64,000 bases of DNA from an uncultured Planctomycetota bacterium. GTDB lineage: Bacteria > Planctomycetota > Planctomycetia > Isosphaerales > Isosphaeraceae. The translations under genes were made by a program, and so were the position numbers. The DNA is taken from positions 1,568,001-1,632,000 of the forward strand of contig CAWGMQ010000005.1 of assembly GCA_963823665.1 (NCBI GenBank), written 5' to 3'. The notes under the pieces were generated by a model that searched no databases, was not told the origin of the DNA, and worked only from the letters and a program-made list of their open reading frames with translations. The first letter of the stretch is position 1; each line of letters begins with the position of its first letter. Positions 20,616 through 48,547 of this stretch are shown piece after piece.

Positions 20616-20628
20616 GGATTGAGGGCCC

Positions 20629-25153: not shown

Positions 25154-25633
25154 TCAGGCTTGGTCCCGGAAGCGGCACTTCGAGCCGGCAGGTATCGTTC
25201 CAAACGTACGCTGGCTGATTTCTTTTTTTTGGATTTTGGGTTTCGGAAAGGGCTGGACCAAGGAAACACGATTCAATTCATTCCGATCGGGCGGGAGATT
25301 GCCATCCCATTCGACGCAACCGAATGAGCGGCGCAGAACATAAAGCAAGTTGACCAAGAACTGATCGGGGCCATCTTCCGCGAGGATGCGTCGCGCGCCT
25401 GCGATCCATTGGTCGTCGGCAATGAATTTTGGGTATTCACCGATGCCTGCATAGATGGGGTTCATCACGATTCCCCTGATGCCGGCCTCACCGAATTTGG
25501 CGGGGTCGTCGCCGCCCTCGGGAACGCTCACGCTTGGCCGTGGCAGCGGGGCTGGACGTTCGTCGTCGCCGCCCGGAATACCACTTCCCATATCGTCCGC
25601 AGGCGGAATGCCTCGGCCGGTGTTTTTCGCCAT
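25154..25633 (-). CDS. Small hypothetical protein, copy 1 (reads through the point where copy 2 stops)
   Basis: SD 'aaggag', ATG 25633; near-identical to 27011..27367. Confidence 0.7.
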   Translation of the reverse strand: MAKNTGRGIPPADDMGSGIPGGDDERPAPLPRPSVSVPEGGDDPAKFGEAGIRGIVMNPIYAGIGEYPKFIADDQWIAGARRILAEDGPDQFLVNLLYVLRRSFGCVEWDGNLPPDRNELNRVSLVQPFPKPKIQKKEISQRTFGTIPAGSKCRFRDQA

Positions 25634-25646
25634 CGCCCACTCCTTC
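25281..25646. repeat. 366-bp direct repeat, copy 1
   Basis: Colinear, highly similar to 27015..27380. Confidence 0.95.
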
Positions 25647-26112
25647 ATTTGCCGGTCAACCGAGAGTCGAAACGGAAACGGGATGGTTTACCAACATGAA
25701 GCTCAGGAAACTCAGCATGGCGAGGATTCACGAGGTAATTAAACTCTGCAGGAACCAGCACGCTGGGAACCTGGAGCACCACGGAAGACTTGCCTGCGAT
25801 CCAGGCATCGCCAATTGCCCTGAGTTTTGCTGGAAGCGGATCGGACCTCCAGTTTCTCCCCAAGCGCGCTCGGTCTACACGCGAGACGAAACATTCGTCG
25901 ATGCCTACCTCGATGACGACGTAGCTTTGAAGCAACTCGGCGGCATCCAAGTGGACTAGCATGTCGAGGGCCGCCAACGCCTGGGATTGAGCCAGATAGA
26001 CCATGCTCACGCCCGGAGAGTTCCAGCGACCGCCGAACCGCCGCGCGCCCTCTCCGCTCAATGCACTCCTGCCATGTTTTTGCTTGACGATGCGCCAAGC
26101 ACTGACGATCAA
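25645..26112 (-). CDS. RES-domain toxin (MbcT/ParT-like)
   Basis: 'SGEGARRFGGRWNSPG..VY', 'LQVPSVLVP.E.NYLVNPRH'; TTG start overlaps the antitoxin stop. Confidence 0.9.
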   Translation of the reverse strand: MIVSAWRIVKQKHGRSALSGEGARRFGGRWNSPGVSMVYLAQSQALAALDMLVHLDAAELLQSYVVIEVGIDECFVSRVDRARLGRNWRSDPLPAKLRAIGDAWIAGKSSVVLQVPSVLVPAEFNYLVNPRHAEFPELHVGKPSRFRFDSRLTGK

Positions 26113-26594
26113 GTGAAAACTCCGTACTCGAGGCGGCCAATCAGATCGAGAACTTCTCGAGCCCCTAGTTCGGTACGGGCGTAGGTCAAGGGGCTCTGCT
26201 GGCCCAAGGCCTTCTTGGGAGTTCTCAGCCACGCGAGGGCGGCAGGCACGTCGCCCTCGAACAAACCGACCGTTTTCTCAAAAACCGTGGCTATCCGGAG
26301 CAGGCGCTCCGACTCATCGGGCGCCAGCTTGCCGGCGACCCGACGTCGGGCAAATGTTCGTGCGGGAATCCCGATGATCGAGGCGATTTCGGAGGCCGTC
26401 ATGCCGCTCATTGCCTCGAGAGAGACCAGAGCCTTGAACGGCAGGCCGTGCTGGACCTGTTCGATGAGCTGATCAGTCCGGGACACCTTCAATCCCAAAC
26501 TGGAGCCCAGTGTATTAAAGGAGACATGTGGCCTTCGGCCGGGCTTTCGAATGTCGAGCGTGCTCATGATCCTCAGCGTACTCCCTACTGCCAT
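26109..26594 (-). CDS. Xre/MbcA/ParS-family antitoxin
   Basis: 'GLPFKAL', 'GIPARTFARR', 'L..DESERLLR', 'WLRTPKKALG', 'GAREV..LIGRLEYG'. Confidence 0.9.
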   Translation of the reverse strand: MAVGSTLRIMSTLDIRKPGRRPHVSFNTLGSSLGLKVSRTDQLIEQVQHGLPFKALVSLEAMSGMTASEIASIIGIPARTFARRRVAGKLAPDESERLLRIATVFEKTVGLFEGDVPAALAWLRTPKKALGQQSPLTYARTELGAREVLDLIGRLEYGVFT

Positions 26595-34154: not shown

Positions 34155-34279
34155 CGAAGCCTCCTCAGAACTGAGTTCCTTTCGTGCGAATATCGACAAT
34201 CGAGACAATTTCGACCACTCTAGCTCATGGCCGGCCCGATCGAAAGGGAGACCGCGCAAAGACCAACGCCGGATCGCTT

Positions 34280-34735
34280 CAACGCCCACAGCACGCTGCT
34301 TCTCACCGAGCTTTGCCGCTTGCCGCATTTCCTGCCGCGAGCTCTCGCGGCTGCCAGCCCCGCGTACGTCCGCTCGCGGATGAGGTTACGCTCAAACTCC
34401 GCGAGCGCCCCAAAGATGTGAAACACCAGCTTGCCGCCCGGTGTAGTCGTATCAAGGGATTCGGTGACGCTTTGGAATCCGATCCGCTCGGCCTCCAGCT
34501 CGGCCATTAGCTCGATCAAGTGTTTGAGCGACCGTCCCAGCCGGTCGAGCCGCCAGACCGCCAGCACGTTGCTAGATCGGAGCGCATCGTGCAGACGCTC
34601 CAGGCCGGGGCGTTGCACCCTGCCGCCACTTACCGTGTCCTCGATGATCTTCTCGCAGTCGGCCCGCTTCAGGGCGTCACGCTGCAAGTCAAGATTCTGC
34701 TCCGTTGTCGAAACTCTTGCATAGCCGATGATCAT
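34280..34735 (-). pseudogene. Hin/Pin-like serine recombinase copy 1 (catalytic Ser intact; frameshift and loss of C-terminal HTH)
   Basis: 'MIIGYARVST', 'VWRLDRLGRS', 'LAEFERNLIRERT'; similarity to copies 3/4 ends after 'KQRAVGV'. Confidence 0.85.
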
Positions 34736-34825
34736 ACCGCACCCCCTTGCCTCTCGAGTTAAGAAGCCCGTCGGAATGTTTGGGAGCGGACTTTTTGCGG
34801 TCAAGCCGCTGAGTCATCGGAACAA

Positions 34826-34903
34826 TAAATAGACCCCAGGTTTGATTGACGCCCCCTCAGATCGAGGACCGCCGCCCGTTCTTGAGGTCGATCGATGCCT
34901 CGA
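34826..34903 (+). repeat. hix/res-like site A plus conserved downstream flank
   Basis: TAAATAGACCC-CA-GGTTTGATTGAC followed by ~50 bp shared with sites B and C. Confidence 0.75.
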
Positions 34904-35119
34904 ACTCCTTTCCGTCGTCGCATGGGCCATCGTGCGCGCGCCGTGTCGTCGGATCGACGCGGGTTGGGCAAAAAGTGTGCACTCGGGACACGCCCTCCTG
35001 TGTCGATATGGACTCGTCACATCGGCCGAATTCAGGTAGTGTCAGCGAACGGATCGTCGTCAACAGCGACATCCACTTCGATAAGGACGACCCGCGCAGG
35101 AATGGAATCCGGAAGCAGC

Positions 35120-36547
35120 ATGGGCAAGCGCATCCGAAACTACCGAACAGGCGACCGAGGGGAAGACCTTGGCATCTTCCTGTTGAGAGCGTTCTGCGCC
35201 GTCGCACCAATCCCCAGGCAGGAGGACTTCGGGCTGGCGGATGCCGTGGCCACGCTACTTCGGCCCGAGGGCAGATTTTGGTATGCCGAGGACTCCTTTC
35301 TGGTGCAATTCAAGTCCAGGACCGAGAAGAAGGTGACGCTGGAGGCGCCTGTCTTCGAACGGTGGCTCGCCCAGGATCTCTCGATCCTTGTTGGTCGGGT
35401 GAACCTTATAGAGAAAACCATCGAGTTCTTCACAGTAGGTGCGGCACTCTTCGACCGCCGTGTGCATCAGGCCAGGGGCCTCGTGCTCTGGCTGATAAAC
35501 GGCGAAGAGGGGCTCCACGACGAGGTTTTGCACTTGAGACTGGAAAAGCCGATCCTGAGGTGGTCGGCAGCAGACACCGAGGGCGTTGAATTCACCGACC
35601 GGACGTACGCCGTCCTTAAGCAATGGCTCAAACTGGAGCGATGGAACCGACGGTACTTCCGCGCCGGAGTGGCACGCGAGACCCTGTGGGAGACGAACAA
35701 AATGCCCACGGAAGGTAATGTCGTCCACACTTGGTCCCCTGCGCTCGGACGAGAGGCTCTGGCGGACATTGAACCGCTAGTTCACCTGATCGGCCTGTAC
35801 GCGCGTCATCATCCTGAGCTATGGACTCGGGTACATGCGGTTGAGGATGCCCTTCGGGGCCCGGACGATCCCAGCATGCTCGCGGGAATGCGGTCCTTCC
35901 AGCGCTTAACCGACGCGCCGCCACGTCTGGCAGCGATCGCCAGGAGACACCCGACGGCGGACGCGGTCGTAACGATCCAGATGCTACGCTGCGATGCGGA
36001 GGGTGCAAATTTCTGGATTTACATGTGCGGGCGGGACGGAAGTAGCGTATCGCTACGACACGAGGGGACATGGGCAGAACTGAAGCAGAAGGGTTTTGAC
36101 TACGAAATTAAAGGAGACGTTCCGAGTGCCAAGGTTACGTTGAACCTGAACCGATATTTCGCCAGCGCCCCGATCCCTCATGAGATCGTCGACGGCCCTG
36201 ACGAGACGCTGACCGTGGGTTTATGGGAGCACTCCCCGTGCTTCTTCCTACGTCGCGTCCAGGCGGACGAACCTGTGAGTGGTACAGATTTGATGCCGAC
36301 CGGGTCATCGCAAGAAGGCGCCAGAGCGTCCTCGAAAGCAACCAAGCGGGTCCCGAAAGCGTTGGGCAAGAGCCCGAAGGCGTCCGCTAAACCTGCCGCA
36401 AATGCTCCCAGAGCCGGGGGCGACGACAAGAACAAAACCGTGAAATCGAAGGCCGTAAAACCCGCGATCAAGAAATCAGCAGCCACTAGACTTGCCGCGC
36501 GTGCGGCAAAGGCGACCTCGAAAGGAAAATCCAGCAAGACGGGTTAA
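35120..36547 (+). CDS. PD-(D/E)XK nuclease-like protein (DUF4365-like N-terminus) with Lys/Ala-rich tail
   Basis: 'GDRGEDLG...RQEDFGLAD...FLVQFKS' (E..D..QxK). Confidence 0.6.
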   Translation: MGKRIRNYRTGDRGEDLGIFLLRAFCAVAPIPRQEDFGLADAVATLLRPEGRFWYAEDSFLVQFKSRTEKKVTLEAPVFERWLAQDLSILVGRVNLIEKTIEFFTVGAALFDRRVHQARGLVLWLINGEEGLHDEVLHLRLEKPILRWSAADTEGVEFTDRTYAVLKQWLKLERWNRRYFRAGVARETLWETNKMPTEGNVVHTWSPALGREALADIEPLVHLIGLYARHHPELWTRVHAVEDALRGPDDPSMLAGMRSFQRLTDAPPRLAAIARRHPTADAVVTIQMLRCDAEGANFWIYMCGRDGSSVSLRHEGTWAELKQKGFDYEIKGDVPSAKVTLNLNRYFASAPIPHEIVDGPDETLTVGLWEHSPCFFLRRVQADEPVSGTDLMPTGSSQEGARASSKATKRVPKALGKSPKASAKPAANAPRAGGDDKNKTVKSKAVKPAIKKSAATRLAARAAKATSKGKSSKTG

Positions 36548-36799
36548 TTGTCGAATTGGTCTGAAGACTCGGTCGGGACCTGATCAATAGGGCAAGTCCT
36601 TCCGATACACCTGGTACTCGGACGGAATGACCGACGTTCAGTGGATTCGGAAGGCGTACATCGGGGGGTAGGCTGCGGCTTACCAACGGCTGAGCTGACC
36701 GTAGCCGCCATTCTGGTTTCCCGAGCTTCAACGTTCTTGCAGGCAGCAACTGCTGCGCAGCCGAGCGTTTCGGAAGCGCATCGGCCAGATCGACCGATG

Positions 36800-36882
36800 C
36801 GTCTCGCGCCGGCTTCAGTTCATCATGCCGCAAACGGAGACTGTTTTTTCGTCGTCGGGTCCCCCGCGTAGCCGATGATCAC
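36800..36882 (-). pseudogene. Serine recombinase copy 2, 5' remnant only
   Basis: GTG ATC ATC GGC TAC GCG..CCG ACG ACG...CAT GAT GAA CTG AAG ('VIIGYA..PTT...LRHDELKPA' vs 'LQRDALKRA'). Confidence 0.7.
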
Positions 36883-36960
36883 GCTCCGCAGGCTAGCCGC
36901 CGGAGTAAAGAAACCGGTGAGAGCGGGAATTTTGAGCTGAAGTCGCTAACCGACCGGCAT

Positions 36961-37040
36961 GGTAAACAAAACCCAGGTTTGATTAACGGCCCCTGAGATC
37001 GAGCACTGCTGCCCGTTCCTGAAGTCGATCGATGACTCGA
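36961..37040 (+). repeat. hix/res-like site B plus conserved downstream flank
   Basis: GGTAAACAAAACC-CA-GGTTTGATTAACG, then 'cccctgagatcgag...cccgttcctgaagtcgatcgatg'. Confidence 0.8.
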
Positions 37041-37156
37041 GCGGCGTTGGGCTCCGCGCCGGGCGCGTGTCGTCGTCGTCGGACCGAAGCTGCGAAGGCA
37101 ACGCGCAGTGGGTACAATGACCAACCTTTAGCGCTCGCAGTCAATTCAGAATTCGA

Positions 37157-37888
37157 GTGACCCCTGTGGCTATCATTCGTGAACCAAACAGCTACCTTCG
37201 CTCGCTCTCGACCGAATTGCAATGCAGGGCTGATAGGATTCGGCACCTGATCGGAGACGCGCATTTCCTCACAGACGGCCATCACAAAGAATATGTACTG
37301 CAGGGCATGATTGAAAACTTTCTTCCCGAGGGTCTTATCTGTGCGCGAGGTTTCGTAGTACGAGATCATGCGCTGTCGTTCATCAGCCTCGAACAAGACT
37401 TGCTTCTCGTGGATGTGCGGCGGTGCGCGCCTCTTTTCTACGAATCCGGCGTCATCGTGACCTTCCCGGAGAACGTCCGGGCGGCAATCTCGGTGAAGAG
37501 TACTCTGTCGGCCAAGACGCTGTTGGATTCGATCAGGGGCCTGAATTCCATTCCTAGGATTGAATCAGAACAACAGCCGTGGCTAGGTGTCTTCGCGTTC
37601 ATTTTAAATAGTGATTGGAGGAAAAACCCCTCTCTTGCAGTGGGATGGGTCAGAAACCGAATGGGTAAGCTGTTCCAACATTGGACAGACGGCGGCATTT
37701 GCTCTAATGGTGAATTGTTCGTACGCATGAACTGTCGCGAGCCGCGTAATGCGCGTGGCTACGCCACAGAATTGTCATCCGCGCTCTTTCTGGCAACCTT
37801 GGTAGATGGGGTTCTAGATCGCGCCGACAGAAGTTCCCGAGGAATTGGTGATCTTATGTCCGGCCTGGAGTTTCCGGAGATCGCGTGA
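37157..37888 (+). CDS. DUF6602-like restriction-endonuclease-fold protein
   Basis: 'H..TDG..KE....ENFLP.....GFVV....S.EQDLLLVD....PLF......PENVRAAISVKS.L'. Confidence 0.7.
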   Translation: MTPVAIIREPNSYLRSLSTELQCRADRIRHLIGDAHFLTDGHHKEYVLQGMIENFLPEGLICARGFVVRDHALSFISLEQDLLLVDVRRCAPLFYESGVIVTFPENVRAAISVKSTLSAKTLLDSIRGLNSIPRIESEQQPWLGVFAFILNSDWRKNPSLAVGWVRNRMGKLFQHWTDGGICSNGELFVRMNCREPRNARGYATELSSALFLATLVDGVLDRADRSSRGIGDLMSGLEFPEIA

Positions 37889-37892
37889 CAGG

Positions 37893-40800
37893 CTAGGCAT
37901 CATGAACGGCGCGGGTGCCGCCGAAGCAAAACATGACGTTAGCGTGGTCGATCTCGCCTGGAGCGCACCAGCGGTCGCGTTTCTCAACGAGAACGTTTTG
38001 CCGCAACTCTCCAACATCTAGATAAACCCGGCCTCCATATTCTCGGACGGTACCCTGAACCGTCCTCCTGCCGCCCTTTGAGTTTAAGAAGAATGCGCGG
38101 GGGAGCCAGAGCACATTTGACGGGATATGTGACTGGCGCAGTCGGGTAAAAACGCCGGCAGCTGCGTCCCAATCGCCGAGATGCGCGAGGGCAAGCCCTT
38201 GAAGGAAATGAAAGAAGCTCTGTTGCTCAATGGCATCGTTGGTCAGAATCTCGTTGACGATCGACAGGAGTTCCGGCCAATTAATCTCGATGTCGATGGG
38301 CGAGAGCATTGCTCGATGGATTCGCCACCAGTAAAAAACCTCGGCCTGTATCTGAGAGAGCCGCCGGTCAATGTAGCGACCTTCGTCCTTGACTTGCTGG
38401 CGGCATTGGAGGACGTATTGGTATAGCTCGTTGAAATCGCGACCTTTCCCTTTCTCGCGTGCGACTGCGAGCTTTCTGCGGGCGACAACAATAAACCCGT
38501 CCTGGCTGCGGCTGGTCTTCCATACTTCGCTGGCAATCAACTCGGCGTCGGCGCGAGGAAGAGCGGCGTCGTAAATTGCCTCGCGAGCCTCACGTAGCAA
38601 CCCTTCGCTCTTTTTCGATCGTGACCGGACAGCAATAGGTGAGTTATCTAGGATAGCAAGCTTGTCGATCTCGCCGACGGCGTCACACGCGATCTTGAGT
38701 TTGGCTGCTGTAGCGTCTTCGCTGAGCGCGCGAACAAGTTGGAGGCTGATTCCCGCTCCCACGTGGACGGCATGAGCGTCGGCGACCGTTCCTTGTCGGG
38801 ATTTCTCAAGCAACTCTTCTGCCTCGACACGTCCGGCCTCCAAAGTTTTTTCACCTGACTTAATCTGTGTCAGGACCGCTGATGCCATCGACGTATAGAT
38901 GTTCGACTCGGGCTCATTGCGCTCAGTATACGGATAATTTGGTGTCGCCAGTGCGGTCTTATAGAGCCGAAGGGCTTCTGCTGGGTGATTATGCCGATCC
39001 TCCCAGAGTCCCTGGTGATGGACGAGGGCGCGATCCGGTGCTGCCAACGCGTCTATGGCGGCGATGTAAAGATCGCGACCATCGTCGTAGTTCAGTCTTT
39101 CAAGCTTAGGGTTTCCCACTAGCAGCTTGGCGACGAAGTTTCGATAGGTTAGCCCAGATCGCCCAGAGCATGCGCTGATTAGAGAGTGAAGTACGCCGAT
39201 TTCACCAAGACGACCATGCGGACCGCCGTTGATAAGTGTGACGATCGTATCTGTGACGATTTGGTTTCTGCATCGAAGCGAAATGCCGTCATCGCTGTTA
39301 ATCATGTAGAGCACGCCCCAAACTGCGCTGTTTGTCGCGAGTAGATCTTTCGCTTCGCTCCACTCAAACCCAATAGCCGCGCGCAGCAACTCAAACGGAA
39401 GAGCGCAACCGTACATATTTGCAACCGACGTGCAGCGGTACGCTTCCCGAACTCGGTCGGTGCTGATATCGTATTCTCCCTTGATCCTGTTTTTCAGCCC
39501 GTTGATGTCACCGAGACGGCAATACTCGTCTCTAACCGACGAAACGATGATGTGCCTTGTCTGCGGCACCGTGACGTAGAGCGTGTTCAGCACGTCTCTC
39601 GCGTGAGTGAGGTCGGCTCCCTTGAGAAGTTCGCGAGCATTCTGAAGTGAGGATGCGGCCTGGATTGTGCATAGGTATTCGGCCAGGCGGGCAACTTCCT
39701 CCTCACTGAAGTCATCCCCTAGACAGATTTCTGACACAGCAGTTGAATGACCTGTAATTTGGGTCGTGTCAATGGCAGCCCATTCCGATGAGCGGACGGC
39801 GATAATAAGTGTGACGCTGATGCCAAAAGACGCGCAACTGCGAAGGATATGTTGTACTTCTCCTGATCGGGTGTGGAGAGGGTCATCGATCACGACAAAT
39901 GTTTCCCGCGCCTCGGGGAGTTCCGCACGAAAGTCACGGAAGAACTCGTGGAAGACCCGCTCAGGTGTCGAGAGCGGACTGGCTGTTACCCATATGACGG
40001 TCTTGTCGGCTGAAGATAATTCGTAAGCCACGCGCTTGAGCATCGTTGTCTTGCCGTTAGCGGCACTTCCAGTAATAGCCAAGCATGTGTGTGACGCCGG
40101 ATTTTCCCGAGCAAGACGTTTGGCGGTTTCGACCACGTTTGACTCGATATCACGACGAAAATCCAAGTTCATTGAGTAGGCTGCCCACTCGGGCACGGAC
40201 GGCGAAAAAAGTGAGTCGAGGAGCGCCTCTCTGGGAATCTTGTCGACAACTGGTGCGTCAACCGGTTTAACGACGATGCAGATGTCGCGATATCGTTCCA
40301 ACAAGCTTTCATTCTGGGCAACCAGAGGTAACTGCCGAGTCCTGCCGAAGTTCTCCTGAGCGGAGATTCGGCTGACGAGTGCGGAAAGTGAATCCTGAAA
40401 CGCATATGCCGGTATTCGCTTTTCCAACAATCGGAGAAGGGTCCGATTTTGAAGCATCGGGCAGTCTTTCATGAAAACGAGTGAGCTCGGCCGGGTCTTC
40501 GGCGCGGCCAACATGTCGGAGACAAGGTCGAGGAACGCTTCAGCATCACCGTCAACGCCGATACAAATCGCGGGCGATCCAGCGAGCATGTCGCAGAACG
40601 ATTCCAGCGCAATTCGCCACGTCGCGCGAGATGAAAGGTATTCGTCCTCGAAGAGAACAAAGCAATTCTCAGTAAGCGACCCGAGCAGCTTGAACGACGG
40701 CGTGCATCGAGGAGGAACTGGGGCGGTCATGTCGGTGATCGTTGTGAGTGGCTTGCGAGCTGCCTTCTTGTCGATCTCGGTTTGGATTCGAGTTTCCAAA

Positions 40801-41114
40801 TAGGTGTCTAGCGTCAGGCTGAAGATTGACTTCCAATTCGGCTTGGCGAGAGTTGCGAGGTATGGGGATGCCTTTTCCTGCCCGTAGAATTCTCGGATTC
40901 GGTCTCTGGCTGCCGCCTCATCGCCACCTTGCGATCGCAGAAAATCGCCAAGGGTTTTGACGCCAATTACGGCGTCGGGATGGGGATGGTGCAGTTTCTT
41001 CGCTATAGCTCGGTAGAGATCAGCGTGAACAGTCACGCCCGGTCCCGCGATCAATCCGGCGCGGCCGAGTAGGATGTCGGAGATGGACTCTGAATTGACG
41101 GGTTTCACCTGCAT
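37893..41114 (-). CDS. SIR2-like (degenerate) - STAND P-loop NTPase - helical/TPR - C-terminal OB-like domain protein
   Basis: 'LIAGPG', 'SIFSLTLD', 'FKLLGSL', 'ICIGVDG' at SIR2 motif positions; Walker A 'GSAANGKTT', Walker B 'FVVIDD'. Confidence 0.75.
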   Translation of the reverse strand: MQVKPVNSESISDILLGRAGLIAGPGVTVHADLYRAIAKKLHHPHPDAVIGVKTLGDFLRSQGGDEAAARDRIREFYGQEKASPYLATLAKPNWKSIFSLTLDTYLETRIQTEIDKKAARKPLTTITDMTAPVPPRCTPSFKLLGSLTENCFVLFEDEYLSSRATWRIALESFCDMLAGSPAICIGVDGDAEAFLDLVSDMLAAPKTRPSSLVFMKDCPMLQNRTLLRLLEKRIPAYAFQDSLSALVSRISAQENFGRTRQLPLVAQNESLLERYRDICIVVKPVDAPVVDKIPREALLDSLFSPSVPEWAAYSMNLDFRRDIESNVVETAKRLARENPASHTCLAITGSAANGKTTMLKRVAYELSSADKTVIWVTASPLSTPERVFHEFFRDFRAELPEARETFVVIDDPLHTRSGEVQHILRSCASFGISVTLIIAVRSSEWAAIDTTQITGHSTAVSEICLGDDFSEEEVARLAEYLCTIQAASSLQNARELLKGADLTHARDVLNTLYVTVPQTRHIIVSSVRDEYCRLGDINGLKNRIKGEYDISTDRVREAYRCTSVANMYGCALPFELLRAAIGFEWSEAKDLLATNSAVWGVLYMINSDDGISLRCRNQIVTDTIVTLINGGPHGRLGEIGVLHSLISACSGRSGLTYRNFVAKLLVGNPKLERLNYDDGRDLYIAAIDALAAPDRALVHHQGLWEDRHNHPAEALRLYKTALATPNYPYTERNEPESNIYTSMASAVLTQIKSGEKTLEAGRVEAEELLEKSRQGTVADAHAVHVGAGISLQLVRALSEDATAAKLKIACDAVGEIDKLAILDNSPIAVRSRSKKSEGLLREAREAIYDAALPRADAELIASEVWKTSRSQDGFIVVARRKLAVAREKGKGRDFNELYQYVLQCRQQVKDEGRYIDRRLSQIQAEVFYWWRIHRAMLSPIDIEINWPELLSIVNEILTNDAIEQQSFFHFLQGLALAHLGDWDAAAGVFTRLRQSHIPSNVLWLPRAFFLNSKGGRRTVQGTVREYGGRVYLDVGELRQNVLVEKRDRWCAPGEIDHANVMFCFGGTRAVHDA

Positions 41115-41317
41115 GTTCTAGCGCCATGAACAAAGGTAGAGGCTGTCGTTGCTGGAGACCTGAATTCTACAGCGAGAGTGGTGCCAGGCGAAATCTTTGG
41201 GGGAGGTAGAATCGCCTTTCGCGCGCTTTGGTGGGATCGACCGAACCATCGGAAGGACTTTTCGACCGGCACCCGGCGAGGCGCACATTTGCCGCACCAG
41301 ACGCGCCGGATCGGTCG

Positions 41318-41877
41318 TCAAATCTGGCCAGGCTGCGCCGCGACATACTTGTAAAGCGTCGGCCTTGAGGTGCCGACCGCTTTGCAAATCTCGTCAATCG
41401 TGTGTTTCTTTTGCCGGTACACATTGACCGCCACGGCACGCTGCTTGTCTCCAAGCTTTTTTCGCCTACCGCCTTTCTTACCGCGTGCTCTCGCGGCCGC
41501 CACCCCCGCGTAGGTCCGTTCGCGGATCAGGTTACGCTCAAACTCCGCGAGCGCCCCAAAGATGTGAAACACCAGCTTGCCACTCGGAGTCGTGGTATCG
41601 ACGGATTCAGTGACGCTGTGGAACCCGATCCCCTGGCACTCCAACTCGCCCATAAGATCGATCAGGTGTTTGAGCGTTCGGCCCAACCGGTCGAGCTGCC
41701 AGACGGCCAGCACGTCGCCAGGTCGGGGCATATCCTGCACCCTCTCTAGGCCGGAGCGGTGCAGGTTGCCACCGGCCGTGTCCTCGATGAACTCCTCACA
41801 CACCGCCCGCTTCAGGGCATCACGCTGCAAGTCAAGACTCTGCTCGGTCGTCGGGATCCTCGCGTAGCGATGATCAC
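41318..41877 (-). pseudogene. Serine recombinase copy 3 (5' frameshift, catalytic Ser->Pro, HTH intact)
   Basis: GTG ATC ATC GC TAC (1-nt deletion), 'YARIPTT', 'WQLDRLGR', C-terminal 'HTIDEICKAVGTSRPTLYKY'. Confidence 0.88.
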
Positions 41878-41967
41878 CGTACACCCCCTTGCCGCTAGAG
41901 TAGTGAAACCCCGTGGCAGCGCAAGCCAATGGGATTTAAGGTATCAAGACGCTAGGCCACCGCAGTA

Positions 41968-42073
41968 GTAAAGAGAACGAAGAGGGTTGTATGGGGAAGT
42001 GACCAGAGTGACCGTCGCCATCCCCACCCGCTGTCGTGGGCACTTTCCCATACAACCCTCTTCGTTTGATTGC
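41968..42073 (+). repeat. hix/res-like site C' split by an inserted hairpin
   Basis: Left arm GTAAAGAGAACG (41968-41979) and right arm CGTTTGATTGC (42063-42073) flank the insert; upstream 'tcaagacgc' flank shared with site D. Confidence 0.65.
41976..42066. mobile_element. MITE-like hairpin with 26-bp inverted repeats
   Basis: 41976-42001 AACGAAGAGGGTTGTATGGGGAAGTG vs reverse complement of 42041-42066: 25/26 match. Confidence 0.6.
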
Positions 42074-42399
42074 ATCCCTCCGGCCAAACCATCCTATACT
42101 CGCGTGTTAGCTCGATCCCGGACCGCAAGAACGCCGTACCGGCAGACAGATCATGCTCGAGAGCAGACTACCCTCGAAACAAGAATCCCCGATCGAATGG
42201 TAGCCCCGGCTCAATCTCCGCCAGCAATCGTCGTCATTCCCACTCACTCAGTTCTGCCGACAGACGGCCATCAATCCGCGGAAGTTCATTTAATGGAGGC
42301 AGCGCTCCGCAGGAAATGAATGCGGCCAGCTCGGGCTGCCAATTCAACCCTCCAGAAGGAATGGAATTCGACTTGGGCACGGTTAAGAGCCGGGGACTT

Positions 42400-42468
42400 G
42401 AGAAAACGCAGGTCTGATTGACGGCCCCCGGTTCTAGGAGCGCCAACCGATCCTGAAGTCGATTGATG
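42400..42468 (+). repeat. hix/res-like site C plus conserved downstream flank
   Basis: GAGAAAACG-CA-GGTCTGATTGACGGCCCC...TCCTGAAGTCGATTGATG. Confidence 0.7.
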
Positions 42469-42647
42469 GGACAAACTTCTTAGGGCTCTGCACACTGGAC
42501 CTAACGTGCGGCCCTCAGCCGGTTGGCAGCCGGCGGTCGACGACGCGAACGTGAGAATCGTGCGCACTACGGACGAGACGCAGGCGACAGCATTCGGCAC
42601 ATCGCGTAGAATAGTAGATCGAAAACGCTTGCAGGAGGGGGAAGAGA

Positions 42648-43535
42648 ATGAACGTCGTGGAAAAACCCCGCAAGAAACGCGTCTTCATCGCGTCCTCGCG
42701 TGCCGATGCCGCCGAGGTCCAGAAGGCAATGCAGCACTTCGGCCTCGACGTCGTTACGCTGGAGCAGACCGCAACGCCAGGCTCCACGTGGGTTGATAGC
42801 CTCCACCGCTGCGTAAATGATGCCGATATCGTCATCGGGATCATGGCGGACCGCCGGAAAGATGCGAACGTTTTTTTCGAGCTCGGCGTCGCGAGCGCGC
42901 TCAACAAGCCCGCTCTCCTGTTCATCACGCCGGAGTATCCGTCCGACCTCATTCCACCATCGGGTATCCCGTACCTGCGAATGGATCTGCGGAACGAAGA
43001 TGCAGTGATGTTCGGCTTGAAGCAGGCGCTGTCGATTTCTTCGCAACGCGCGCATCAACCCGCGGAGGGCTTCACGACGCGGCCGATCGGGCCAGTAGCT
43101 GATAAGCTGCTAGAAATGCTCCCTCAAACAAATCCGCGCGAGTTTGAGGACTTGATTTTCAACGCCATCAATGCCAGCGGCGCTTCGACAATCGCGCGCG
43201 GAAGCGAGGCCGAAGACCGGGGCGTCGACTTTGCCGTCTGGTCGAGCGACCTGGAACCGACCGTTACGAACCCTCTGCTCATCGAATGCAAGTCCAGCCT
43301 CCGCAACCAGTCCGACGTTGACCAAGCGACCGGCCGTATGTTTCGTGCCCTGCAAGCGATTCACAACGGCTGCGGACTTGTCTTGTACAAGGAGGCCGGA
43401 ACGGTGGCGATGGTGGCACCCCGGTCAATCCCAGTCGAGTTCGTCTCCGCGGAAGACTTCATCAATGGGCTTCGAGATACCGGGCTGGCCGAGTACATTC
43501 GGAAACTCCGGAACACCGCCGTTCATGGGTTCTAA
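42648..43535 (+). CDS. TIR/nucleoside-deoxyribosyltransferase-like domain fused to an Mrr-like restriction endonuclease domain
   Basis: 'RVFIASS...ADIVIGI...NVFFELGVA.ALNKP'; 'PREFEDLI...DRGVDF...LIECKS'. Confidence 0.75.
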   Translation: MNVVEKPRKKRVFIASSRADAAEVQKAMQHFGLDVVTLEQTATPGSTWVDSLHRCVNDADIVIGIMADRRKDANVFFELGVASALNKPALLFITPEYPSDLIPPSGIPYLRMDLRNEDAVMFGLKQALSISSQRAHQPAEGFTTRPIGPVADKLLEMLPQTNPREFEDLIFNAINASGASTIARGSEAEDRGVDFAVWSSDLEPTVTNPLLIECKSSLRNQSDVDQATGRMFRALQAIHNGCGLVLYKEAGTVAMVAPRSIPVEFVSAEDFINGLRDTGLAEYIRKLRNTAVHGF

Positions 43536-43538
43536 CCG

Positions 43539-44078
43539 ATGGCCGCGTATGACCCGGCGGTCATTTATGGATATCTGGCTGTCGTCGACAACCCGCCAAC
43601 CAACGCTGCGAAGGGCAAGGCGTTCGAGGACTTGGTCTGTTACCTGTTCAACGGTATTCCCGGCATCACGATCACCGCGCGCAACGAGATGAACACATTC
43701 GCGACTGAGGAGATCGACATCGCGTGTAAGAACGATAACGATCCCACGGGGCTCGGAGCCTTGGCCGATTTCTTTCTTGTGGAATGCAAGGGATGGCGGG
43801 ACGCCGTCAATAGCGAACAAGTTTCCTGGTTTCTTACGAAAATTCGGCATCGCGGGGTGCGTTTCGGAATCCTGATCGCGGCGAACGGGATCACCGGCGA
43901 GTCGGAGCACCTATCCAGGGCCAACTTCTTGGTCAGTGTGGAGATGGCCACCTTCGGCATCAAAATGGTCATCGTCACGCGGGAGGAAATCGAGAAACTC
44001 ACGTCAGGCGAGGATTTCGGCAAACTGATCATTCAAAAAGTCTGTGTTCTCCACGCTTCCGGCGGCCGTTGCTACTGA
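43539..44078 (+). CDS. Mrr-like restriction endonuclease
   Basis: 'KGKAFEDLV.YLF...EEIDI...LVECKGW...GILIAANG'. Confidence 0.8.
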   Translation: MAAYDPAVIYGYLAVVDNPPTNAAKGKAFEDLVCYLFNGIPGITITARNEMNTFATEEIDIACKNDNDPTGLGALADFFLVECKGWRDAVNSEQVSWFLTKIRHRGVRFGILIAANGITGESEHLSRANFLVSVEMATFGIKMVIVTREEIEKLTSGEDFGKLIIQKVCVLHASGGRCY

Positions 44079-44162
44079 AGGCGAGCAACGGACCAAGCGA
44101 GTTTCACGACACGCAGCGCTTTCTACGACCCCGAGAGCCGCTTGCTGTGCCCTAATCCGTCG

Positions 44163-44470
44163 TCATGTGTCGCCAGCCGCCGCGACGTACTTGTAAAGCG
44201 TTGGCGTCGAGATGCCGACCGCTTTGCAAGTCTCGTCAATTGTGTGCTTCTTCTGACGGTACAAATCGACGGCCACGGCACGCTGCTTCTCGCCAAGTTT
44301 TTTTCGCCTGCCGCCTTTCCTGCCGCGTGCTCTCGCGGCTGCCAGCCCCGCGTACGTCCGTTCGCGGATGAGGTTACGCTCAAATTCCGCGAGCGCCCCA
44401 AAGATATGAAACACCAGCTTGCCGCTCGGTGTGGTCGTATCGATGGATTTGGTGACGCTCTGGAACCCAT
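44163..44470 (-). pseudogene. Serine recombinase copy 4, 3' half only
   Basis: 'GFQSVTKSIDTTTPSGKLVFHIFGALAEFER...GISTPTLYKY'; catalytic N-terminus missing. Confidence 0.88.
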
Positions 44471-44521
44471 CGCAGCGTATGAAAGTGGTTGTCTGGGATC
44501 AAGACGCCAAACCACCAAATC

Positions 44522-44550
44522 GGTAAACCAAACGGCCGTTTGATTTACGA
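44522..44550 (+). repeat. hix/res-like site D (near-perfect palindrome)
   Basis: GTAAACCAAACG-GC-CGTTTGATTTAC; aligns gap-free with site B. Confidence 0.75.
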
Positions 44551-44900
44551 CCGCCACGGTCCACTATGAGACGTGCGATCGAACCAGTTGTCTTCTTCGT
44601 GCGCAGTTACGTCGTCATCGTCGCCGGTCGCCTGATCGGTGTGAAGCACCGTCAGGGTTCTGCCGTACGCTCCCAGGCCAACGACGTCTTCGTTCATTTC
44701 GATGTCTGGAGCGCCGTCAAACCACAAAGCTAGTACTCCCAGGGCGATGCCCTGGGCTTTGTTGTTTTGGCCTTTCAGGCCGGGAAGTGGGTCGGACAAG
44801 AACAACGACAACGGGGCGGCGGTCGATCCGGCCCATTCACCTCGGTTCACTCGCGGCTTGCTCGCAAAGCGATCGGACTGGTATGAGCGAGCCGTCCGTG
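44545..44900 (-). pseudogene. C-terminal remnant of an ImmA/IrrE-like metallopeptidase, interrupted by a REP-like palindrome
   Basis: 'WFDG....MNEDVVGLGAYGRTLTVL'; palindrome 'cccagggcgatgccctggg' at ~44738-44756. Confidence 0.4.
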
Positions 44901-45371
44901 ATCTCGTTAACCGCGTAGTCGTTTTGATTCGACCGCGTGTTCACAATTAACAAAGAAATCGCGCAAAGCCGCGGCTCCTGACGTTGCAACCGCGTTGATC
45001 GAGTGATTGCACTTTTTTTGGACGCTTTTATTGCCGATCGCTGAAACCGGTCGCATATTATCCATAGGGCAGAGTCTGCGAACGCGCGATGCTGGCGCGA
45101 TGGGCGGCTCCGCTTTGCCTCCCTTTCCTACCTCCTCGTCGATCTCCATCTCATCCTGAAGAACAGCGCTGAAATTCACGCAGGAAGTGCCAAAAAGTGC
45201 CCTTGATAACGAGCCTGAGACCAAAACCGAAACCCAGGCAGGCCTGGCCGTTGCGCACGGCGACTCCGACGCCTTGGCGGCTTTGCCGCGTCGGCGGTCG
45301 AGCGCAGAGTTTGCTGCCCCGGACTCTGAACTGGGGGGAAGGCGAGGAGCTTCCGATTTTGCTATCATTAG

Positions 45372-45750
45372 TTATCATTTTGCTCCACGGGAGAGAAGCT
45401 CTTGGATCGACCGAAGCCGCTTTCGCATTTGCACTTGCGGAGGGCGGTGGACCCGGACTTGGGGGGTGGAGCGCTTCGCGAGCTGCGCCGTGGCGATTCG
45501 GGGCCGGAATCAGGACGGAGGACGGAGGGCGGAGGGCGGAGGAAGAAGCGCGGAGCGAAGGGAGCCGGAAGACGGAGAGCGGGGATCGGAAGAGACCTTC
45601 ATCGTGGTATCACTTTGGTATCATTTCGCACCAGGGGCGAGAGGCTGGTGGATCGACCGAAGACATGTTTGCATTAGCGTTTGCGGAGGGCGGCCGAACC
45701 GGATTCGGGGTCTGTGCCAGGTCGCGGGCCGCACCGTGGCGATTTGGGGC
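45372..45750 (+). repeat. Diverged ~135-bp direct repeat pair (45372-45503, 45618-45750)
   Basis: Shared 'tatcattt..', 'ggatcgaccgaag', 'ttgcggagggcgg', 'ccgtggcgatt.ggggc'. Confidence 0.7.
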
Positions 45751-46044
45751 AAGGCCAGGCGGGCGTTTCGGCTTCGAATTCGGCCGATGGCTCGCCACCT
45801 CGACCGAGCGAGTTCATTCCCGTAGTCCTTGTGGCATAAGGGTGCGCGACGAATGTACAAAACGAAGTGGTCGGTCGGGGTGGACGGTTGAACATTTCGT
45901 TCTGTTGGGATGCTTGACGACGCGTTCCATCATCGAAGTCCATTCCTGCTGAAGAGAGACCATGACTCCAGCCGCATTGAGCGATCTTCAAGATGCCACG
46001 GATGACGACCACTGGCCGTTGCTGAAGAGCGGTCAATTTAGGCC

Positions 46045-47390
46045 TGGTTCAATTGCGGGTAACACTGCCGGCGAGCTGGCGTTGAGCGGGAACGCGATTA
46101 AGCGGAATCCTCGCTGGCGCTTCGGGTTAGTATCGTCGCCAGGACGGGTGCGCAAGCTGTTACCCGGTTCGGGGACGGGAGGTTCGACAGGCCCGGAAGC
46201 ACGACCCCTGACAGAACGCGAGGCGACCGGACGCTTGGATGAAGATCAGGCGGCGGGAGTGGATTCGCGACGTGCGGAGAACGAGGGCCGGCGCGGGAGC
46301 AGAGGGCGAGGTTGCACGCCGGGGTCACGAACGTGGCACGAGTTCGCCGACATCGGGGGGAGCGGTGCCCCCGCACGATGTGTGTGAGCCGTGAGCCGCA
46401 TTGCGCTCAAACCGGGGGTTCGATCGAGTTCGTCGTTGCATCCGTTGCAAGCCGGATAAGAATCCGAGGTTTTCTGGTCGAAGAAATAGCCGAATCGCGA
46501 AAGTCGATCCATATTCTATGTACCTCAATCTCGATCACCGACATCGAAGTCGGGGCGACGGGCCAACCACTTCTCTGGAACCGGAAATGACTGCTTCGTT
46601 TGCTCGAGCGCATTCTCGAGGAGCTGGACTCGGTCTGACCACGGCTGCGCGGCGGGAAGAGCGGGGTGGGACTGCGCTTGAAAATGGGGGATCGGTGCGC
46701 GACGAAATCCCTCCGAATACTGAGCTGTGCCGAGCGCGGACAGGTTCGGACCACGGCCAGGATGGGTTTTCATCCTTTGGGCCGAGGGATTATGGAGGGC
46801 ATCTGGTGGCGTTATCCTCGTTGGCTCTCAGCATTTCCGTGCTCCGTGAGAGTGTTTCTGCCAGGCTTCGTATGGGGCTCTCGACCGCAATCAAGATGGG
46901 ATTGTTTTCGGGCTGGCAGTTCCATCCAGTTCCATCTAGTTCCACTTACTAATACTTATTTGAAACATGCGACGCGTGGCCAGGCTGTCGTGTGACACGG
47001 CGGGGGGATGTCGAACCAGGAATCTTACGAATCACACTAATTAGGGACGAGAAAAGGGGGTCGGTCATTCAGACAGAAGGCGAACGTCGGCCGGCGGGGC
47101 GATGTGCGGGGCGAGTGATCAGCGAGGGGAGGTTCAGCCAGTGCCAGACTTAAGTCGACCGGCGGGCGACTGTTCGCTTTCCCTTAACCCTTGTGGCGTA
47201 AGGACGCGCGACGAATCTACAAAACGAACTTAGCCCTTGTTCAGCGGCGTTGCGGTGTCGTCAAACGGGGCGAAAAAGGGCGTGGTTCAATTGCGGGTAA
47301 CACCGTCCGCAAGCTAGCACGATGCGGGAGCGAGACTAAACGGAATCCTCGCTTGCGCTTCGGGTTAGTGTGGTCGCCAGGGCGGGTGTG
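46045..47390 (+). repeat. ~105-bp direct repeat pair (46045-46150, 47284-47390)
   Basis: 'tggttcaattgcgggtaacac...cggaatcctcgct.gcgcttcgggttagt...tcgccagg.cgggtg'. Confidence 0.8.
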
Positions 47391-48547
47391 CGATGTGTCA
47401 CCCGAACTGCCGCGCGTTTGAACCAGGGGCGAAGAAGTGGGGCTGGACTGGGCTGGAACGGCTTCATCGAGTTGGCGTGCCTGTGCGCTGGCGGCTGTTC
47501 TGAGAGACGAAGAAGGAGTGTTTTCTGTGCGTGAGACGGTTACCTACGAAATTGATCGGGCGATTCGGCGTAATGCCTTGATATGGGAGGAGAACGGCGA
47601 TTGAGAGTGAGACGGAATCTCCTGATTTTGTCTCATTTCGTCTCATTTTGTCTCATCAGACCTTGAGGTCGCGGTGGGTTTCACCCGCCTACGGTGGCAT
47701 TGATGCCGGTATGCGGGGACGATCGCGCATTAGGGAGAGTGGGGCGCGAGCCTTCAATTCGGGCGGCCCACAGTCGTCCAGATCGCAACAGGCGACGAGA
47801 ATACCGCGGGGCTCCGCAGCTAGCTGCCTGCCGGCGCCGCCCCCAACCGCCCTCGGGGCGGCACGTAACATGGTTGGGGGGAGTTTTCAAAGCGTATTGA
47901 ACGGGCACGTCTGTATGAAAATGTTCGAAAGTTAATCATTTATATTGATTGAACTTGCGTCTTTTTCACAGAGATCGAGAGTGCGATTGAGAAATGGGCA
48001 ATTCCGAAAACCGGCGCATATATAGATAGGGAGAAAGTGCGTGGGTCGCCATAGTTGCCACAGTCGTGGCGTGCGTGACTATCAGCCGCAGCTTCGCGGT
48101 CGCGGGAACGCCGTTTTCATTCGCGCGGCGGGAAATCGTCGGGCTGAAGTTTAACCTGCTACGGTTGCGTAAATCGTCAGGCTGAAGCCTGACCTACACT
48201 GGCAGGCTCGTTCCCTTAATGCTTACGGGTAAAGGGGTATCGTCAAATCTACAAAACGAACTGGGGCCTGGTTCGAAGGAAGCAAGGGCAGGGCCACACT
48301 CGCGACGGATCGCAGCACGGGGCGGGTGCAGCCCACCGGCCATAACGCTATATGGGATGGTGGGTTGCACCCACCCTACGGAGAGCCCCGGCGGGCGGTT
48401 GCACTCGCGGACGCCCGGTTTATGCCGGCGATCGGATCACCGCGCAGAACGCGAGACGGAGCGCTATCGCGCTCGGGAGTTTTGGGGGAGGATTGGGTGC
48501 CTACTCCGCAGCGCTGCGCCGGAACACTGCTGGTCTGCGTGGTCTTC

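Follow-up and report, generated by a model that had tools for sequence, protein, structure and literature searches.

Site-bounded cassettes and small serine recombinase remnants in an Isosphaeraceae genome: a probable fossil array of mobile cassettes

The question raised by this locus is how a series of short gene groups, each accompanied by much the same palindromic site and by what remains of much the same recombinase gene, came to be lined up at one place in a bacterial genome. The locus lies in a 64,000-nucleotide stretch (hereafter the window) of contig CAWGMQ010000005.1, positions 1,568,001 to 1,632,000, from the 16.5-Mb genome of an uncultured soil planctomycete of the family Isosphaeraceae, in which the array is flanked by genes for a peptidase S9 and a POR; this genome is designated G000, its sister genome G001, and the loci with which the array was compared carry designations of the form L0xx. 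The explanation considered probable here is that the locus is a fossil array of small mobile cassettes, with a small serine recombinase of the resolvase/invertase kind as the enzyme that moved them. The evidence consists of the anatomy of the array, its recurrence in relatives, the uniform orientation of its sites, and the turnover of DNA at those sites between sister genomes.

Five sites in the window share one orientation and one design, namely a 26-bp imperfect palindrome (12+2+12) with an AAAC-NN-GTTT core; a preliminary description of this DNA had reported five related palindromic sites in direct orientation, and all of them are present. Site A, a crossover-type palindrome, lies at 34825-34850 (ATAAATAGACCC CA GGTTTGATTGAC; core CA at 34837-34838), site B at 36962-36987 (GTAAACAAAACC CA GGTTTGATTAAC; core CA at 36974-36975), site C at 42397-42422 (CTTGAGAAAACG CA GGTCTGATTGAC; core CA at 42409-42410), and site D at 44523-44548 (GTAAACCAAACG GC CGTTTGATTTAC; core GC at 44535-44536), all four read on the plus strand. 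The fifth, C', is a single site whose left half (41968-41979) and right half (42063-42074) are separated by a 79-bp palindromic insert at 41982-42060. The pattern AAMSNNSGTYTGATTNNC, with at most one mismatch allowed, is matched five times in the window (once each at A, B and C, and at D on both strands) against a mean of 0.31 matches in the shuffled window, none of 100 shuffles reaching five, a test that is generous because the pattern was built from these same sites; searched exactly across the whole 16.5-Mb genome, the site pattern yields seven matches against none for a reversed control. The 79-bp insert has one other genomic copy (C4:1344559-1344639 in G000, 89%), and a match to a tyrosine recombinase (C4:1346207-1346686) is situated about 1.6 kb from that copy.

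The sites are joined to conserved arms on both sides. A left arm of about 100 nt, which is the 5' region of the recombinase gene up to its start codon, is conserved at A, B, C' and D, and a right arm of about 110-125 nt, which points toward the cargo, is conserved at A, B and C. On the minus strand, the left arm of A spans 34736..34824 and includes a conserved half-site-like GGGYTTCTTAAC motif, the left arm and left half-site of C' span 41883..41981, and a left-arm remnant of D is left at 44471..44522; on the plus strand, the right arms are found at 34851..34961 (cassette 1, type a), 36988..37085 (cassette 2, type b), and 42423..42497 (cassette 4). The sites delimit three units with cargo and one without, the latter being the C'-C interval (42063..42396, plus strand), which starts with the right half of C' and represents an empty or degenerate unit. 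The array has a GC content of 0.54-0.60 and its flanks of 0.62-0.67, in agreement with the earlier remark that the cargo appeared less GC-rich than its surroundings.

Four recombinase copies are found in the window, all on the minus strand, and every one of them is inactivated. Copy 1 (34220..34735), a pseudogene whose orthologue in the sister genome is 88% identical, retains an intact catalytic domain, carries a frameshift after ARARGRK, and has lost its helix-turn-helix (HTH); copy 3 (41318..41882), likewise a pseudogene, has a 1-nt deletion in codon 4 and a proline in place of the catalytic serine, with HTH_7 intact; and copy 4 (44123..44470) consists of the C-terminal ~100 residues, some 95 N-terminal codons having been deleted. 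Copy 2 (36781..36961) is a cassette end of a short type, in which about 35 recombinase-derived codons (36781-36883) are accompanied by an inverted repeat that is conserved and by a left arm from which 10 nt are deleted. The Pfam Resolvase model matches copies 1 and 3 (E 1e-44 and 6e-38), and HTH_7 matches copy 3 (1.7e-8), so that the family combines the N-terminal Resolvase domain and the C-terminal HTH_7 by which small serine recombinases are recognized. The window copies are 61-89% alike, too little for local duplicates of recent origin; copy 4 shares 92% identity with a copy located 30 kb upstream of the window. No clearly intact copy was detected anywhere in G000, where the best one (C5:1538406), which belongs to a unit upstream of the window, is near-intact but carries a proline in its GYARVS motif and a changed recognition helix and no longer has its stop codon.

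In relatives, intact recombinases of 186-187 aa with a YARVSTTEQ motif are available for comparison. The closest solved structure to an intact member is the Gin invertase (E 7e-52 over residues 1-178), followed by the gamma-delta and Tn3 resolvases (~1e-27 to 1e-29), and none of the NCBIfam equivalog cut-offs, including those for XisF, Mpi, Ccr and IS607, is reached. Plasmid homologues of about 65% identity are common, and the one that was examined, from Sphingomonas, adjoins a Tn3 transposase and TniA/TniB-like genes; hence, the family is also close to transposon resolvases. In that plasmid (Sphingomonas naphthae, NZ_CP117412.1, 34081-58629; L081), three genes annotated as 'recombinase family protein' within 6 kb are interleaved with the TniA/TniB-like genes and the Tn3 transposase, an arrangement that fits res-hunter insertion near resolvase genes. 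Enhancers of known invertases reside inside the 5' part of the invertase gene; here, an enhancer within the first 25 recombinase codons is unsupported by synonymous-site diversity, as third-codon diversity over codons 1-25 of 15 intact genes is 0.438, compared with 0.35-0.49 elsewhere, and no extra synonymous constraint is apparent. Among cultured Isosphaeraceae, Tautonia sp. JC769 (L045) carries an intact recombinase of 74% identity at 4377-4937 and, about 770 nt upstream of it with a small gene between, a near-perfect site at 3608-3633 (GTAAACAAAACG CT CGTTTTCTTTAC); this strain is a possible experimental system.

The same unit recurs outside the window. About 30 kb upstream, a single complete unit (L011, 9340-14243; C5:~1538-1543 kb in G000) runs in the order right-arm site, IetA (PADLOC E 5e-61), IetS (2e-28), recombinase and left-arm site, and it ends in half-sites that are joined to unrelated DNA. 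Relatives located by means of the recombinase are mostly metagenome-assembled genomes labelled Isosphaeraceae, Planctomycetaceae or Planctomycetota, and in Isosphaeraceae genomes as well as in soil metagenomes a recurrent frame is formed by a right arm, cargo, a recombinase or short end, and a left arm. Within the genome loci, arm profiles located 41 left-arm sites together with 34 right arms; a further 27 left arms come from 23 soil metagenome contigs that were chosen by an exact 24-nt left-arm pattern. Two or more sites (2-6 each, with six in L050) are held by 17 loci, and in 17/17 of these the sites are co-oriented.

Cassettes of three kinds can be distinguished within this frame. The first combines cargo with a full recombinase, as in window cassettes 2 and 4, and the second contains the recombinase alone within 0.83-0.86 kb, usually as an intact 186-187-aa gene (for instance, L039 9934-10767, L041 9905-10740 and L043 9906-10743, with more in L074 and L080). 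In the third kind, the recombinase gene is replaced by a short end that combines the left arm, shortened by a 10-nt deletion, with the first ~25 recombinase codons, a stretch that has diverged, and an inverted repeat; conservation of this end stops sharply about 105 nt past the start codon, beyond which the DNA is unrelated. The short-end class accounts for 34 of 64 hits, and copy 2 of the window is among them; this places copy 2 in a family of non-autonomous ends, so that it is no random remnant. The layout first proposed for the window, in which a site is followed by cargo, a minus-strand recombinase and the next site, is repeated by the single unit upstream and by arrays in relatives, but its corollary that every cassette carries a resolvase of its own does not hold, as copy 2 belongs to a recombinase-less class and an intact recombinase is often found alone in a 0.84-kb cassette. 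The inverted repeat at the inner edge of the short end has 82% of its cells paired; covariation does not exceed that of shuffled alignments (118/500 reach the observed score), and this hairpin was not predicted by RNAalifold.

The modules on either side of the sites occur in every arrangement. Of the six ways in which three upstream classes (full right arm, proximal right arm, or 53-nt spacer module) can be paired with two downstream classes (recombinase or short end), none is missing from the 63 sites linked to a left arm, and the upstream half-site consensus is kept at nearly all 63, even beside unrelated upstream DNA. The spacer module belongs to a double site in which two 26-bp sites, 79 bp apart from centre to centre, enclose a conserved 53-nt spacer, with 15 strong copies (L039 9849-9947, L041 9814-9918, L043 9814-9919, L050 13655-13760, L053 9843-9947, and 10 more); its recombinase-proximal site nearly always has a GC core. 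This double site may be either a two-subsite res or a conserved empty unit, that is, a mini-cassette.

Comparison with the sister genome indicates where the content of the array changes. On one contig of G001, the POR gene region is 90% identical to that of the window, the DNA to the right of D 85%, and copy 1 with its left arm 88%; between copy 1 and the D flank, however, G001 holds unrelated DNA of about 600 bp with a site on either side, compared with 9.7 kb in the window. The homology stops at 34829, within site A, and resumes at 44523, the first base of D. It had been laid down beforehand that synteny breakpoints away from the sites would count against the cassette interpretation, and in this orthologous pair, the only one available, both breaks fall inside sites. 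To the left of the array, G001 retains an entire unit, in which a right-arm site is accompanied by five unknown open reading frames (ORFs), whereas G000 is cut off against the peptidase S9 gene. A second orthologous comparison was sought via the flanks of L011, but these are part of a gene family with many copies and provided no unambiguous orthologue; similarly, a DNA search with L050 across the family yielded no usable synteny among the best four candidates per genome.

We infer from this anatomy that the cassettes integrated and were excised and that the recombinase acted in trans on some of them. Each cassette would have existed as a circle with one 26-bp dimer-binding site, a right arm of about 115 nt, cargo, a recombinase gene or short end, and a left arm of about 100 nt. 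Recombinase dimers bound to two sites would assemble into a tetramer that would cleave both strands at the central 2 bp, rotate and religate, these being steps that are established for serine recombinases in general. A crossover between the circle and a chromosomal site would then insert the cassette, now bordered by two complete hybrid sites that are directly repeated; further insertions would extend the tandem array, and crossover between two compatible direct sites would free the intervening cassettes, with short-end cassettes relying on recombinase supplied in trans. As every recombinase copy in the window is inactivated, the array is frozen.

Several observations weigh against this cassette explanation. 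Successive integration of circles at one site, as envisaged in the preliminary description, is favoured by the comparative anatomy, but the contigs that were compared, which derive from four soil runs among nine public runs containing part of the stretch (at best 0.27 of the sampled words), showed neither a circle junction nor an empty site nor a loss variant. Two joints, 36915>41976 in run X3 and 44367>36989 in run X5, appeared in this comparison and are best read as related arrays in other organisms; on the X3 contig, the C' region is combined with a left arm of the short type, which hints weakly at another cassette as its neighbour. A search for one identical cassette at two independent places found none, and the candidate pair L042/L046 was set aside because its homology runs through both flanks, so that one locus has been seen twice. 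The TIR-REase and REase pair of cassette 4 occurs in G001 (C4:2198204-2199735; L036 9205-10736) at 82% identity, and no arms, sites or recombinase were found near it with all filters off; this armless pair may represent the cargo before capture or after loss of the frame. The core dinucleotides at the 63 sites (GC 25, AG 14, GA 10, TG 5, others 9) differ within arrays, and D, whose core is GC, could not recombine as it stands with A, B or C, whose cores are CA; cassette 4, bounded by C and D, is therefore not a simple single insertion in its present state. Moreover, the 26-bp crossover alone does not account for the occurrence of one conserved short end, with its sharp inner boundary, beside many cargoes. 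Classical invertases and resolvases disfavour intermolecular fusion, and the plasmid homologues of 65% identity include one that is a Tn3-type resolvase beside tnpA; on the other side, the Int protein of phiRSM, a small recombinase of the resolvase/invertase type that both integrates and excises, is a precedent in favour (PMC4471427).

In a rival account, the enzyme is an ordinary resolvase with a res-like site that only deletes or resolves, the arrays and the shuffling of modules being produced by RecA-dependent recombination between the conserved arms and recombinase genes (100-800 bp, 75-90% identity) or by rare res x res exchange between co-resident replicons. Mosaics produced by res-mediated exchange are known in the Tn3 family, and the position of the crossover site about 100 nt upstream of the start codon, together with an extra half-site-like motif in the left arm, recalls a res of several subsites, just as the double-site module, 79 bp from centre to centre and with 15 strong copies, recalls the two-subsite res of Sin. 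The 65% homologue next to a Tn3 transposase points the same way, and mismatched cores within arrays speak against free site-by-site exchange. Such an origin is nevertheless judged unlikely, for the breaks between G000 and G001 fall inside 26-bp sites and are not scattered along the arms, the half-site consensus persists in the left halves of nearly all 63 sites in spite of unrelated upstream DNA, the complete L011 unit terminates exactly in half-sites, and the site-bounded 0.84-kb cassettes with recombinase alone look self-contained.

Two further origins are much less credible. If each unit were the remnant of an independent Tn3-family or Tn5053-type transposon near a res site, with transposase and inverted repeats since lost, the Sphingomonas plasmid homologue beside a Tn3 transposase and TniA/TniB-like genes would find a ready explanation; but the sole DDE_Tnp_Tn3 (PF01526) match in G000 (C5:888340) is about 680 kb away beside a different recombinase (41%), other transposases (DDE_Tnp_1, rve) are confined to one long interval of L040, and the shared arms end at 26-bp sites instead of terminal inverted repeats. 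The initial observation that no transposase is visible is extended by the finding of no Tn3 transposase among the window ORFs or 68 cargo ORFs, and an origin from Tn3 or Tn5053 remnants, which is very improbable, was rejected on these grounds. Local tandem duplication of a recombinase-plus-promoter module, followed by divergence and by insertion of unrelated genes through other means, would suit repeats that are co-oriented and adjacent with copies only 61-89% alike; however, copy 4 resembles its neighbours less than it does the copy 30 kb away (92%) and copies in other genomes, the short-end class that includes copy 2 is common to genomes and metagenomes, and what G001 holds between these flanks differs from the content of the window, which leaves duplication with hardly any plausibility. 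The explanation as a fossil array of mobile cassettes is thus the one carried forward; the earlier interpretation, partly supported, was right in its essentials and too narrow in its emphasis on defence and on a resolvase in each cassette, with mobility itself having been inferred.

Known systems resemble this one in part. The family agrees with Gin, Hin, Pin and Cin in its 186-aa size and in the order of catalytic domain and HTH_7, and the 12+2+12 palindrome with its AAAC-NN-GTTT centre by the 5' end of the recombinase appears to resemble the gix and hix sequences; unlike in Gin and Hin systems, however, the sites are direct (17/17 multi-site loci) and bound cargo, and they do not lie inverted around a switchable segment. 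With Tn3 TnpR/res the array shares a small serine recombinase, a site upstream of its gene, and passenger genes that abut the site, but neither a transposase nor terminal inverted repeats accompany any unit in the loci examined. Three resolvase-binding subsites make up the Tn3 res, and the candidate counterparts here are one extra conserved half-site-like motif in the left arm, GGGTTTCTT(A/T)AC, and at some junctions a second full site 79 bp away. A serine transposase of the IS607 family was discarded as a candidate, because the catalytic domain here precedes the HTH and the NCBIfam IS607 model gives 28 bits against a cut-off of 110. Composite islands of the SCC/SCCmec type are also handled by a serine recombinase and are stacked in tandem at one attachment site with direct repeats, some units lacking a recombinase, and defence genes can reportedly ride on them (as Hossain is said to have described in 2024). 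Their Ccr enzymes, however, are large serine recombinases of 440-560 aa and their target is fixed in rlmH, whereas the present family measures 186 aa, attains 38-51 bits with NCBIfam Ccr models that have cut-offs of 700-900, and has its array between peptidase S9 and POR genes.

Integrons offer a parallel in organization, since both systems form tandem arrays of small cassettes at one locus, both include many cassettes that lack a recombinase and carry a conserved recombination end, and both hold defence genes along with varied accessory genes; sedentary chromosomal integrons are described as storing anti-phage cassettes (10.1101/2024.07.02.601686, 10.1101/2024.07.02.601719). In contrast to integrons, the sites here are double-stranded 26-bp palindromes with long conserved arms and not folded attC hairpins, the recombinase lies within the cassette and not on a fixed platform, and the cassettes often contain several genes. 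The absence of a tyrosine integrase and of attC from the first account is borne out, as a six-frame PF00589 search of the genome gave 20 matches with 0 in the window, and the boundaries are dimer-type palindromes with long arms, the short-end inverted repeat being without covariation. By its description, the phiRSM integrase belongs to the same class and shares the capacity to integrate and excise that is proposed here, but it is a phage enzyme of Ralstonia filamentous phages directed at a 13-base tRNA-Ser sequence, with no cassette arrays described for it (PMC4471427). The RADS study (Recombinase-Associated Defense Search; PLoS Biol 2026; PMC13552941), with an Enterococcus recombinase as bait, links small serine recombinases statistically to defence genes across phyla and postulates mobilisation; its main text nowhere uses 'recombination site', 'excis' or 'circular', and sites, boundaries, arrays and non-autonomous cassettes do not appear in it.

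The cargo of the window is defence-like in all three of the units that carry genes. Cassette 1 (35102..36547, plus strand) encodes a member of a ~390-aa protein family with an N-terminal PD-(D/E)xK nuclease fold of the DREN/Hjc-like kind; the listed 550-aa ORF (34895-36547) begins in the right arm, and homology starts at residue 66. All 67 relatives of this protein are annotated 'hypothetical', and four residues (D47, E63, Q69 and K71) do not vary across 36 aligned family sequences. A predicted model (mean pLDDT 83) was compared by Foldseek, in which the first ~110 residues match the SPARDA nuclease (7e-4) and Hjc (1e-3), and an Atlas lead to DUF4365 is consistent with a nuclease fold; the nuclease attributed to this interval at the outset is therefore recovered as an N-terminal fold in the predicted structure.

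In cassette 2, a DUF6602/PD-DExK-like nuclease (37157..37888, plus strand; Pfam E 5e-12) is followed by a 1073-aa STAND NTPase (37893..41114, minus strand; nSTAND5, E 2e-17) with C-terminal tetratricopeptide repeats (TPR). Judging from a weak SIR2_2 match (Pfam E 0.019) and an Atlas lead (0.88), the N-terminus of the latter probably contains a SIR2-like domain, so that of the DUF6602 and SIR2-STAND pair named previously, the DUF6602 and STAND assignments are confirmed and the SIR2 part is weak. The C'-C interval, which had been said to contain no clear gene, gave no credible gene or family match in ORF and family scans. Cassette 4 encodes, as had been anticipated, a fusion of TIR with an Mrr-type restriction endonuclease (42648..43535, plus strand; Pfam TIR + Mrr_cat) and a second protein with an Mrr-type restriction endonuclease domain (43539..44078, plus strand; Mrr_cat). 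For the ImmA/IrrE-like remnant placed after D, the basis comes down to one weak PADLOC match to capP (E 0.002).

Defence is not the general rule for the family. Within G000, the three window units and the nearby IetAS unit have defence-like cargo, and other short-end units carry two sulfatases (L016) or a di-haem oxidoreductase (L017). The cargo of relatives extends to esterases, hydrolases, sulfatases, MarR/AraC/TetR regulators and an ECF sigma factor with kinases, and it also includes a CHAT-TPR protein, TIR proteins and a PtuB-like HNH protein. Cargo ORFs of relatives and other loci were taken by a greedy choice of the longest ORFs of at least 130 aa between the outermost sites of each locus, in which long intervals (L038, L040) may contain non-cassette DNA; PADLOC matches at E<=1e-5 are obtained for 10/68 of them, three being generic kinase matches. 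The notion of a platform specifically for anti-phage genes is accordingly abandoned, given these proportions and the many sulfatases, hydrolases and regulators.

The surroundings of the array in the window show some further features. To its right, the stretches 44920-46400 and 48205-48406 have dozens of copies in G001 (73-88% identity) and one copy 60 kb upstream in G000 (L015); they constitute a dispersed repeat or a multi-copy gene family, and their ORFs are without a Pfam match. Upstream of the island, an HSP70-like ATPase fused to TPR and then a dynamin-family GTPase form an unusual pair at 18420-22383, and a RES-domain protein (25154-26232, minus strand; Pfam E 2e-26) with a small upstream ORF resembles a RES-type toxin-antitoxin pair.

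No description of cassette arrays of small serine recombinases was found in the literature searched, from whose coverage most subscription journals fall outside. It is possible, and is put forward tentatively, that soil Isosphaeraceae possess an undescribed integron-like gene-capture system run by a small serine recombinase resembling Gin and TnpR, in which autonomous 0.84-kb cassettes with the recombinase alone, cassettes with cargo and recombinase, and many non-autonomous cassettes with a conserved ~330-nt module that are served in trans would be stacked at hix-like sites. The usual practice is to classify small serine recombinases as resolvases or invertases, or to disregard them as prophage markers, and the RADS correlation, as presented in its main text (PMC13552941), came without a mechanism. 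If the proposal is true, it would provide the mechanism that has been lacking for the genome-wide association reported between anti-phage genes and small serine recombinases, and it would reveal a Gin/TnpR-like enzyme class that is naturally able to integrate DNA. Should the enzyme both integrate and excise, it would become a third recombinase class for cassette arrays, besides the tyrosine recombinase IntI and the large serine recombinase Ccr, and if it integrates, it would be a compact 186-aa site-specific integrase with a short site. The locus and its relatives provide a concrete, testable architecture for this purpose, with a 26-bp site, arms, autonomous and non-autonomous cassettes, and site-bounded turnover. 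For the planctomycetes themselves, such a system would explain one route of gene flux in very large genomes, the mobile elements of which have been little studied.

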